A DNA stretch of 64,000 nt from Lingula anatina (GCA_051362555.1 CM120648.1:17728587-17792586); one strand, 5' to 3'. Numbered from the stretch's first letter, positions 24,035 to 30,000 are shown. The notes: generated from the letters alone by a model not told the origin. Program-made: numbers and translations.

Positions 24035-27000
24035 ATGGCGTCGTCACGGTCGCTCATGAAAAGCCTGCATCAGAATTATGCATTAATTCCCTTTATCCAG
24101 GTAAGTCTATTGGGTTCTTTGTAACTTGGAATTAGCAAATGATAAAAGAATGTACCCCGAGAAAAGATACAGTCGTTTCGACTTTCTGAAGTGGGACTGC
24201 AGTAATTTTTATGGTGACCTCCATTTGACATTGGTCCAGCAAGTCAATTCTCTACAAATTATGTAAAACGAAAACAAAGCTAAATTTATTTAAAAGAAGA
24301 ATACAGTTCGACTGTTTAGGAAACTAGTTGTTTATATTTATTTTTCATCTCTAGAACGGTTACTGTAACTGCTTTGCGTATAAAAATAACTTTCTTCCAT
24401 CAAACACTCGTAAACGAAAATGTAGATTTCGTTGTAACATTTCCAAAATCTTACTTTTTAACAGCTGTGTTAAATCTTTAAGGATTGAAGCTTTTACATA
24501 AAAATTATTTATAAGAAAACATGAACACACCTTATGCTTCGTTGTTTATAAAATGCTGTTAAAGACATTGTATAATAACACTTAGGTAACTGCTGTTATG
24601 CAAGCCATATTGCACAATATGTGCTATTCATTCAGTAGTGGTTTTCAGTAATATTTTAATTTATGTAAACTGCAGTCAGCATACTGGATAAATTGCCTGA
24701 GCTCACACAGAAAAATTTATTAAAAAAATATGTGAGAGCTCTATATAGTTGTTAATTGATTTTGGTGTGTGGTATGTGACGCCCCCCCCCCCTCAAAAAA
24801 AAAAAAAAAAAAAACTATATATATATATATATATATATATATATATATATATATATATATATATATATATATATATATAACAAAATGCTTACCATGAAAT
24901 GATAATTAAAAATAGACTAGGGCCAGTATATAACATGCATTTGTTCATTTCAGGCACGGTTTTGCCAGACAGCAGCAGCGCCAGCTCTCCACCCAAAACT
25001 GAAGAAATTTAGCATCTACAGATATGTAAGTATCCCTCTCTCTCTATCATTTATAATACTGTGGTTTAAATTTAAACCAATGTATTCTGTTGAATTAAAA
25101 AAAAATAATAATATTTTAAAGCAAAAACACCCAAGAAAAGAAATGTGTGTGATAAATAAGATAAGCATACTACTGAATTAACACTCAGAAAATTCATAAG
25201 AACCATGTGTTATATTATAAAATAACCTTTGTAGGATCCAGACAAGCCAAACAAGAAACCAGCTCTGCAGGAGTATGAAGTCGACCTCAACGAGTGAGTT
25301 GATTATGTCTCGTGGCTAAGGGCATTAAATAAGTTTTGAAAACTATTGACAATGGATGCGTTATTTGTACTTTTTGTAACAGTTTTTAAAAAATTATGCT
25401 GCTCTACAAATAGACCATAGAATTACCAGTAATACTACTTCATCATGAGACATGCAACCATAATTCATTGTGTTAAGTGAGCACAATGAATTATGGTTCA
25501 TTGTGTTAATTGAGCACAAATCCTCATTCCTTTTGCTGATATAATTTTACATGAATGAGATTTTCCTCACTATCGGTAGAATTCTGACTTATTGAGGACA
25601 AAAAATATTGTTGGCCTGGGCGGGAGCCCTAGATCTGACACGATATTTTCCTTCTTTTTCACCAAAAGATAGTTATAGCAGTGCCAGGAGTTTCATATAT
25701 ATCTGTATTGTGACTGACCACTGCCCCTGCTCTAAGTAGTTGACTTCTAACAACCTGGGGACTAGAAATGTTGGTAGATTGAGATTGAAAATTTCATCTC
25801 TGTCCTGACACTATGATAAGCAGTGTAGTCATGTATTACATGTTAACATTTATATTTTCAGTTGTGGTCCTATGGTCTTAGATGCCCTTATTAAGATAAA
25901 GAACGAACAGGATCCAACCTTGACCTTCCGTCGCTCGTGTCGTGAGGGAATATGTGGCTCCTGCTCCATGAATATTAATGGTGCCAACACACTGGCTTGT
26001 ATATGGTGAGTGATAATGACATACTTCTGAGATCTTATGTAATACTGCACCAACTTGTGTATTAAAAATAGGTGAACTAAGAAAGACAAAAAGTGTTACT
26101 GCAGATGCTTAGATATTGCGCCTATGTCTTAAAAAGTGTCATGTTTTTATGTAAAATCCTTAGATTTATGCAACAGACTTATTCACAGCAATAAATTAAG
26201 TCTTGTGTATTGTTTTCTGTTGCAGTAAAATTGATGAAGGCAGTAAGGCTACTAAGATCTACCCTCTCCCACACATGTATGTCATCAAGGATCTTGTGCC
26301 AGTGAGTACAATAAATACACATTATATCTACCCTCTCCCACACATGTACGTCATCAAGTATCTTGTGCCAGTGAGTACAATAAATACACATTATATCTAC
26401 CCTCTCCCACACATGTACGTCATCAAGGATCTTGTGCCAGTGAGTACAATAAATACACATTATATCTACCCTCTCCCACACATGTATGTCATCAAGGATC
26501 TTGTGCCAGTGAGTACAATAATTACACATTATATCTACCCTCTCCCACATATGTACGTCATCAAGGACCTTGTGCCAGTGAGTACAATAAATACACATTA
26601 TATCTACCCTCTCCCACACATGTACGTCATCAAGGACCTTGTGCTGGTGAGTACAATAAATACACATTATATCTACCCTCTCCCACACATGTACGTCATC
26701 AAGGATCTTGTGCCAGTGAGTACAATAAATACACATTATATCTACCCTCTCCCACACATGTATGTCATCAAGGATCTTGTGCCAGTGAGTACAATAAATA
26801 CACATTATATCTACCCTCTCCCACACATCAAATATCTTGTGCCAGTGAGTATAATAAATACACATTATATCTACCCTCTCCCACACATGTATGTCATCAA
26901 GGATCTTGTGCTGGTGAGTACAATAAATACACATTATATCTACCCTCTCCCACACATGTATGTCATCAAATATCTTGTGCCAGTGAGTACAATAAATACA

Positions 27001-30000
27001 CATTATATCTACCCTCTCCCACACATGTATGTCATCAAGGATCTTGTGCCAGTGAGTACAATAAATACACATTATATCTACCCTCTCCCACACATGTATG
27101 TCATCAAATATCTTGTGCCAGTGAGTACAATAAATACACATTATATCTACCCTCTCCCACACATCAAGGATCTTGTGCCAGTGAGTACAATAAATACACA
27201 TTATATCTACCCTCTCCCACACATCAAGGATCTTGTGCCAGTGAGTACAATAAATACACATTATATCTACCCTCTCCCACACATGTATGTCATCAAATAT
27301 CTTGTGCCAGTGAGTACAATAAATACACATTATATCTACCCTCTCCCACACATGTATGTCATCAAATATCTTGTGCCAGTGAGTACAATAAATACACATT
27401 ATATCTACCCTCTCCCACACATGTACGTCATCAAGGATCTTGTGCCAGTGAGTACAATAAATACACATTATATCTACCCTCTCCCACACATGTATGTCAT
27501 CAAGGATCTTGTGCCAGTGAGTACAATAAATACACATTATATCTACCCTCTCCCACACATGTATGTCATCAAGGATCTTGTGCCAGTGAGTACAATAAAT
27601 ACACATTATATCTACCCTCTCCCACATATGTATGTCATCAAGGATCTTGTGCCAGTGAGTACAATAAATACACATTATATCTACCCTCTCCCACACATCA
27701 AGGATCTTGTGCCAGTGAGTACAATAAATACACATTATATCTACCCTCTCCCACACATCAAGGATCTTGTGCCAGTGAGTACAATAAATACACATTATAT
27801 CTACCCTCTCCCACACATGTATGTCATCAAGGATCTTGTGCCAGTGAGTACAATAAATACACATTATATCTACCCTCTCCCACACATGTATGTCATCAAG
27901 GATCTTGTGCCAGTGAGTACAATAAATACACATTATATCTACCCTCTCCCACATATGTATGTCATCAAGGATCTTGTGCCAGTGAGTACAATAATTACAC
28001 ATTATATCTACCCTCTCCCACATATGTATGTCATCAAGGATCTTGTGCCAGTGAGTACAATAAATACACATTATATCTACCCTCTCCCACACATGTATGT
28101 CATCAAGGATCTTGTGCCAGTGAGTACAATAAATACACATTATATCTACCCTCTCCCACACATGTACGTCATCAAGTATCTTGTGCTGGTGAGTACAATA
28201 AATACACATTATATCTACCCTCTCCCACACATGTATGTCATCAAGGATCTTGTGCCAGTGAGTACAATAAATACACATTATATCTACCCTCTCCCACACA
28301 TGTATGTCATCAAGGATCTTGTGCGGGTGAGTACAATAAGTACATGCTATATCAAGAGAACATGCTAATTGCTCAAACCTACTCAAAAACAAAAGATAAG
28401 AAAGTATTAGGAGATCTTGCTCAAGTTGTATTGTAATCACTTCTTTCACTTAGTAAAGCACATGCAAAAACTGAGGATATCAAAACTTGTAAAGGACTAA
28501 CCTGTCTAGTGCAACGTCAGGTTGAAAAAAAAAAGAGTGTAAGAAAATTCTGTAGTTAACCATCTGTATTTCAGGACATGAATAATTTTTATGCCCAGTA
28601 CAGATTCATAGAGCCATATTTGAAGAAGAAGGATGAGAACGAGGCAGAAATAGGAACGAAGCCATATTTTCAGAGCCCAGAAGATAGGGCCAAGCTGGTG
28701 GGTTGATCTTTTTTCAGGATGAAGCATTTGAAATAGTTTTCCTTGAATTAAAATGCCTTTCTGTTAAGTAGTACTCAAAGGTGTAACAGTTAATATATTC
28801 AAATGTTTTCACAGTCACATCTTTGTTTGGTCAATAACGTAAATTTTTTTGATAATATTTCAGGACGGGCTGTATGAGTGCATCCTCTGTGCGTGTTGTA
28901 GCACCTCTTGTCCCAGCTACTGGTGGAACTCTGACAAATATCTGGGACCTGCAGTCCTCATGCAGGCATACAGGTCTGCTAGTGTTTGTTTATTTATTTA
29001 TTTATTGATTTATTTATGTGTTGCTTTATTATGTCTGTAGCCATGTGCTTAAAAAACAAAATTATTCTAATGCAGGCTCGAAGGCATGGTAGTTTGTTAA
29101 TTTATTTGTTTGTTTATTTATGTATTTGTTTGTTTGGTTTTGCACTGGTTATTGTTTCAGTAATTTTTTTTCTCTAGCCATGTGGTTCTAAAATGTTTTT
29201 TTCATTTGGTTTAAGAAAAAGTACACTTTTAGTTATCATATTTCCCACAGGTTTTGTCAAGAATTTGAAATGACTAAAGCCTTCCAGATATGTAGTTTGA
29301 GATAGAGATCCAATTGTTACATAGAACATGCATGCCCAGTGTTGATTTAAATATTTCCCCAGGAGCAATTACTCATCTCTAAGTGCAGGTAAAACCCTCA
29401 TCAAATAGCCATCTTAGTTTGTTGGTTCACTCCATCATAAATGAAAGAAATTTGATGGCTTCTTTCCTTTGGTTATAGAAATAGTGAAGTGTGTCATAAT
29501 TTGTTTGGGCAGCTTCACTTGTCCTGTGGACCTAGCAAAGGGAGTTATGCTACATCCACATTGAAATTAATCAATGAAATGTTCTCTAGGTGGATGGTGG
29601 ACTCGCGTGATGACTTTCAACACGAGCGCCTGGAGAAGATGCGAGGCGCCTACGCTGCGTACAAGTGTCATACCATCATGAACTGTACGAGAGTTTGCCC
29701 CAAGGTGAGCTGACATTTTGCAAAACAAACAAAAAAAAAAGAAAACTATTGATTTATAAAAAATTGCTCCAAAATTTGAAAGCGATGAATACCTTTGACA
29801 AAAATCTTGACCAAACTGGTATTATTCCGTCTCTGATATTACGAGGCTGTATATAGTGGCCATCCCTGAATAAGGAGGCGAGGGAGCTACAGCTTCCCAC
29901 ATCTGGGTCAGTCTTGTGGGCAGCATTTACAACAGCAGACTAACAGATCCACGAATCAAATATGGCCACCCACTTGCCGCATAATCCCCTAAAAGACACT

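Follow-up and report, generated by a model that had tools for sequence, protein, structure and literature searches.

The DNA considered here, a window of 64,000 nucleotides (nt) of Lingula anatina (GCA_051362555.1 CM120648.1:17728587-17792586), contains a gene for SDHB, the iron-sulfur subunit of complex II, whose fifth intron begins with a long tandem array of splice donors (Table 1). The gene model comprises nine exons separated by GT-AG introns, and the spliced product has 282 amino acids. Exon 4 matches the Pfam profile Fer2_3 with an E-value of 1.5e-18, and exon 5 alone gives a weak match to profile positions 80-99 of 107 (E 0.025). Matches to exons 5 and 7 are found among the solved SDHB chains of the PDB (E 2.8e-21 for exon 7), and the Fer2_3 domain, together with C-terminal cysteine cluster motifs like those of the solved chains, identifies the gene as SDHB. 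In the alignment with these chains the exon 5 donor lies after Pro139, which corresponds to human Pro141 (c.423). The position of intron 5 would therefore be common to human, and the first donor of the array would be the ancestral one. In human SDHB minigenes, as described in passages of PMC13554259, loss of the c.423 donor leads to the use of upstream cryptic sites.

From the end of exon 5 into intron 5, between 26302 and 28327 on the plus strand, there are 31 donors of sequence GTGAGT, intact in 31 of 31, so that the splice signal is reiterated in each unit. The 30 complete donor-to-donor units (25 of 69 nt and five of 60 nt) are all multiples of three and free of stop codons in the SDHB frame; the unit listing and Tandem Repeats Finder (TRF) confirm in this respect what an earlier note on this DNA had claimed. 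TRF reports positions 26257-28344 with a period of 69, 30.9 copies, 94% matches and a score of 3609, a repeat signal far beyond chance. Each unit is composed of the 24 nt that start the intron, here called the linker, and the last 45 nt (15 codons) of exon 5. The donor is CCA/GT in 27 of the 31 cases, CTG/GT at donors 6, 10 and 29 (26647, 26914 and 28189) and CGG/GT at donor 31 (28327), in the positions that the note had given. Nine of the 30 array copies are identical to the exon 5 piece; among the 30, an aspartate is changed to tyrosine in seven, the final proline is altered in four and three residues are lost in five. The 9-nt deletion that characterizes the 60-nt units is situated between two CAT, and ATC is present at both ends of the array. 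The final linker has four differences in 24 nt and the other linkers have none or one, which makes the terminal unit the most diverged. It had been proposed that use of a downstream donor would insert n x 23 amino acids of one peptide between the 2Fe-2S and the C-terminal cluster domains. The units are in frame and open, as that proposal required, but the exact 23-amino-acid peptide is encoded by only 14 of the 30, a stop codon is met when the SDHB frame is read on past donor 31, and the insertion point after Pro139 corresponds to about position 99-100 of 107 in Fer2_3, that is, to the end of the 2Fe-2S domain. The copy number of 31 is that of the assembly, since RNA reads were placed on the two ends of the array only.

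Donor use was followed in seven (X1-X5, X7 and X8) of nine raw RNA runs under the species label, X6 and X9 being left aside, with about 6% or 25% of the reads taken from each run. In the first test X1, X2 and X4 (about 6% each) and X7 (25%) were placed on 28258-28977, which holds the last unit and exons 6 and 7. In the second, X3, X4 (present in both tests), X5 and X8 were placed on 25836-26375, which holds exons 4 and 5 and unit 1. Junctions were listed from three reads with two different starts per run. In the first test the depth over the exon copy was 99.5, 94, 183 and 157 in X1, X2, X4 and X7, the preceding linker showed 1, 1.75, 12 and 0.08, and the unique tail of the intron 0, 0, at most 1 and 0. 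Reads on the exon copy extended upstream into unique exon 5 in 84, 83, 135 and 147 cases, and 94, 104, 153 and 134 reads, 485 in total, joined it to exon 6. These junctions carry CA in 94, 104, 153 and 24 reads, the other 110 of X7 ending as CCG, and none from a CGG or CTG donor was listed among the 485 at the threshold of three reads per run. The second test gave 97, 116, 75 and 96 joints between exons 4 and 5 in X3, X4, X5 and X8, and, among the loose ends listed, 61, 135, 64 and 46 reads that leave the first donor for exon 6. Here the linker reached depths of 6, 15, 2 and 0; in the three stranded runs this signal is on the mRNA strand, as would be expected of unspliced RNA.

The ratio of linker to exon depth is 0-7.6% per run when summed over all copies, or at most 0.25% per copy if there are 30 copies. 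This bounds the use of later donors at 0-7.6% per run, much of the linker signal being array-internal reads. In every run the first donor accounts for well over 90% of the use, probably for close to 99%. The authentic donor is CCA/GTGAGT, the first of the 31, at which the RNA reads exit exon 5; the earlier note presumed a need for its strict use, and the RNA shows that use to be almost strict. The other expectations of that note fared worse: no ladder of isoforms is seen in the RNA, exon 5 joining exon 6 at the first donor, and no competition is seen from the CTG and CGG donors, in spite of their being closer to the consensus at position -1. Two reads of X2 join exon 5 to an acceptor at 28599, 24 nt inside exon 6 and in frame, and are probably noise.

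The array itself is not an artefact of the assembly, because reads that go back 69 nt, from unit to unit, occur in four of the seven runs (one each in X1, X2 and X3, nine in X4; none in X7, and X5 has a linker depth of 2). It exists beyond this assembly, in other individuals, which settles the earlier concern that raw reads might lack it. Two reads of X4 go from 26343 back to 26285 with a 60-nt period; the short unit type is probably also present in another individual.

The reading that we favour, with a probability of about 85%, is that a minisatellite lies over the exon 5/intron 5 boundary of SDHB, that its first donor is used, and that the 30 spare donors are removed with the intron. The spare donors are likely spliced out in this way because exon 5 is probably defined from its single acceptor (26226) to the first downstream donor, or else commitment would follow a first-come order. 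A minimum-energy fold of exon 5 and two units, computed without a shuffle control, gave no feature by which donor 1 would stand apart. Several points weigh against this reading. The study of human F7 states that its own data fit exon definition only partly, and it reports two extra donors in use in human 6-16 and CBS (PMC1557585). Nine reads, four of X3 and five of X4, pass from the end of the second copy into exon 6, and in X4 a median loose length of 86 nt leaves room for a partial linker, the features not being linked read by read. Moreover, the counts come from no more than about 6% or 25% of each run. Later donors may therefore see some minor use, at most a few per cent.

Such minor use is what the best of the alternatives supposes: donor 2 or 3 would serve in about 1-5% of transcripts, and the in-frame mRNAs, with 23 or 46 additional residues, would escape nonsense-mediated decay as noise of the kind found in human 6-16 and CBS. 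The nine reads would be its direct trace, the more so as copies 1 and 2 of the assembly have the same C at position 24 that these reads seem to carry, and in X3, a poly(A) run, the linker has a depth of 6 as against 0 in intron 4. However, a read that starts within the 45-nt piece and carries the common exon allele C at copy position 24 has one mismatch each to copy 0 and to copy 1, and is consequently tied. The second-copy reads are as many as the C-allele reads at 26349 (4 of 7 in X3, 5 of 15 in X4); heterozygous exon reads alone would be expected to give 4.4 ties in X3 and 7.7 in X4, and 7 and 12 reads, respectively, were reported to fit two places. In X3, with a median loose length of 115 nt, no more than 36 bases remain aligned, which is not enough to reach through the linker, and the linker depth of 1 in X1 equals the number of its array-internal reads. 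In X5 some 2.4 ties would be expected and none was listed, a number below the threshold. The nine reads are better explained as mapping ties than as later-donor use, and we regard leakage of this kind as improbable.

Far less probable is a selected or regulatory array, in which the frame would be kept as a backup for the loss of donor 1, or copy number would tune the level of SDHB. Both unit lengths are multiples of three, GTGAGT is intact in 31 of 31 donors, and five of the seven variable sites of the exon copies fall at third codon positions (P 0.045). However, being in frame (1/3) with a stop-free linker (0.53-0.62) has a probability of about 0.2 by chance, exchange with the real exon accounts for the third-position pattern, and the 9-nt deletion is flanked by CAT repeats. 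The peptide is not conserved, given the aspartate and proline changes and the three-residue losses listed above. The diverged animals X7 and X8 express SDHB without array reads, and neighbouring arrays have units of 84 nt with stops and of 25 nt, so that not all are in frame. Selection for the reading frame is therefore unnecessary, and no function is needed to explain the array. Recursive re-splicing, the stepwise removal of the array unit by unit that the earlier note had raised and for which nothing but the repeated donors speaks, can be set aside, because a CCA/GT junction regenerates no donor: there is no AG/GT ratchet point, a single G serves both the AG of CCAG and the donor GT so that a cut after AG leaves no donor, and no joint from the first donor to the next unit was listed (threshold of three reads, with one downstream unit in the stretch).

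Under the favoured reading, a spliced-out minisatellite, the array would have started by slippage between a short exonic ATC repeat and another 24 nt into the intron. The ATC at both array ends and the 9-nt deletion between CATs suggest that slippage at short repeats accounts for the unit lengths. Growth and turnover would be due to unequal exchange, the exon included. The exon may earlier have ended in CCG, which deamination of the CpG would turn into CCA or CTG, according to the strand; the units with CTG and CGG would then be relics that keep the old G at position -1, and not stronger donors that were selected.

Inclusion of the exon in this turnover has some footing in the RNA, whose differences from the assembly are taken as alleles. 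In the 45-nt exon piece they fall at positions 3, 9, 12, 18, 24, 27, 36 and 45, and four of the eight exon alleles (18T, 24C, 36C and 45G) recur as substitutions in the array. In the runs nearest to the assembly both alleles (18T and 24C) belong to the shared set. A post hoc test of this sharing, limited to transitions, gives P 0.0014, or 0.02 without the CpG-related sites 24, 44 and 45. In array copy 5, 36C and 45G occur together, as they do at the exon end of X7 and X8, along with a C-to-T change. The shared alleles hint at exchange between exon and array, and under the favoured reading the coding end of the exon probably takes part in it. It is a tentative proposal, which we hold to be rather less than even, that the last 15 codons of exon 5 act as a unit 0 trading sequence with a concertedly evolving minisatellite and, jointly, that tandem duplications in this genome prefer donors. 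If so, the intron would preserve earlier alleles of the exon (CCG-derived ends, GAC, TAC, CAT) and would also be a template that can feed damaging variants (the aspartate-to-tyrosine and proline changes and the three-residue deletion) back into SDHB. A literature search found no paper on such an exchange, which is weak evidence given the coverage of the literature.

X7 and X8 are more diverged, with no reads at 99% identity or above. Their linker depth is 0.08 and 0 against about 7 expected from X1-X3, in libraries that differ and that show no intronic depth anywhere in these two runs; either the animals may be without the expansion or the libraries may be without unspliced RNA. At 28881, 28884 and 28887 the assembly differs from all reads in all four runs of the first test, and at 28911 it differs from three of the runs. 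Many further sites are heterozygous. Polymorphism in the species is high, and X7 and X8 seem to represent a divergent lineage that carries the same species label.

The second half of the proposal, a preference of duplications for donors, comes from the neighbourhood. A nearby gene of EGF repeats (Pfam EGF_CA), with 17 or more consecutive calcium-binding EGF repeats, each on a single exon, at 41193-51510 on the plus strand, has three more donor-spanning duplications, not all of them in frame. Among 22 scored donors (eight of SDHB and 14 of 17 EGF exons, three being dropped where the rule found no GT), four lie in the first unit of an array with a period of 10 or more, and such units make up 1.06% of the window. 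The overlap has P 8e-5, or 0.001 without the SDHB array that seeded the search, in one window and post hoc. The units of the 51-nt EGF array are almost wholly EGF-exon sequence and give a 17-amino-acid repeat; judged from its consensus donors and in-frame units, this array would be a better candidate for real isoforms than that of SDHB. At 48666-48720 the start of an EGF exon is apparently duplicated 54 nt apart, possibly a duplication on the acceptor side. A scan for recurring donor contexts also returned a 30-nt triplication at 4272-4360 with AAG/GTCAGT, which was not counted, no exon reading frame being found. A satellite-like array with units of about 145 nt occupies 9643-11108.

Table 1. 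Positions in the window of the SDHB exons, the intron 5 array and the duplications in the EGF-repeat gene.
Feature	Position	Strand	Basis
SDHB exon 1 (from ATG)	24035..24100	+	gene model; outside read-covered stretches
SDHB exon 2	24954..25025	+	gene model; outside read-covered stretches
SDHB exon 3	25235..25293	+	gene model; exon end seen as loose read ends before 25862
SDHB exon 4 (2Fe-2S domain)	25862..26005	+	Fer2_3; exon 4-5 joints
SDHB exon 5	26226..26301	+	similar to chicken, pig and human SDHB as far as human residue 141; RNA
Unit 0, final 45 nt of exon 5 (15 amino acids)	26257-26301	+	unit listing; RNA
Authentic donor CCA/GTGAGT, phase 0, same position as human SDHB c.423+1	26302..26307	+	loose ends into exon 6
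Minisatellite, 45-nt exon piece + 24-nt intron start, 31 donors, 30 full units	26257..28350	+	TRF, unit listing
60-nt units	26785..26844, 27121-27180, 27181-27240, 27655-27714, 27715-27774	+	unit listing
CTG/GTGAGT pseudo-donors	26644..26652, 26911-26919, 28186-28194	+	sequence; no TG-carrying junction among those listed
Terminal, most diverged unit, CGG/GTGAGT + linker	28324..28350	+	sequence; no 28326-to-28575 joint among those listed
Unique rest of intron 5 including acceptor	28351..28574	+	RNA depth 0 to 1, four runs
SDHB exon 6	28575..28697	+	485 junction reads from exon 5
SDHB exon 7 (cysteine cluster motif)	28864..28973	+	PDB SDHB match; RNA joints
SDHB exon 8	29590..29704	+	gene model; start seen as loose ends behind 28975
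SDHB exon 9 (to stop)	30383..30466	+	gene model; outside read-covered stretches
84-nt duplication over EGF-exon donor (42198), 3 donors, in-frame stops	42188-42371	+	
51-nt array (42861), 9 donors AAG/GTGAGTG, the eighth GC, open in frame	42812-43275	+	
25-nt decayed triplication (51210) over EGF-exon donor AGAG/GTAAAA, about 3 copies, not in frame	51205-51270	+	

The SDHB array confirms cleanly, in an invertebrate and from raw reads, that among many identical donors the first prevails despite 30 in-frame alternatives. Since nonsense-mediated decay cannot hide the use of an in-frame donor, the test is somewhat better than that in F7, where only some of the pseudo-sites avoid a premature stop. 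The case would gain weight if exchange between exon and array were confirmed, since variation in a conserved piece of coding sequence would then be shaped by a neutral repeat in an intron, or if tandem duplications turned out to concentrate at donors throughout the genome.

The framing of the locus as a natural experiment in splice-site selection was correct, but the same question has already been addressed on the 37-bp variable-number tandem repeat in intron 7 of human F7 (Borensztajn et al. 2006, PMC1557585). In that repeat the first unit also spans the boundary, the donor is reiterated and only the most upstream one is used; in 50 constructs the most upstream donor beat identical, stronger and stop-free downstream donors. 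The F7 repeat differs in having four exonic bases and 5-9 copies, whereas that of SDHB has 45 exonic bases and 31 donors with every unit in frame. Human 6-16 (25 pseudo-sites), CBS intron 13, LMNB2 and PDGF intron 4 have the same architecture in similar copy numbers (10-26), according to the same source. LMNB2 and PDGF use the authentic donor only, as SDHB appears to do, whereas the two extra donors of 6-16 and CBS contrast with at most a few per cent in the SDHB array. The 'mirages' of lancelets (Adh3, globins, troponin C and PGBD5) are likewise invertebrate duplications of boundaries, with sizeable exon pieces and several loci per genome, which leave splicing normal and show concerted evolution and divergent edge units (PMC3087553, PMC3902484). 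They differ in copy number, 3-6 for BflGb6 against 31 here, and the sharing of alleles between exon and array, seen in SDHB, is absent from the passages on them considered here. Features of the F7-type repeat and of the mirages recur in SDHB, namely a first unit over a genuine exon-intron boundary (confirmed by RNA), a reiterated donor, the dominance of the most upstream donor in the mRNA, concerted evolution and a divergent edge. Hence, the SDHB array probably adds one more ordinary case to a kind of repeat already described in human and lancelet genes.

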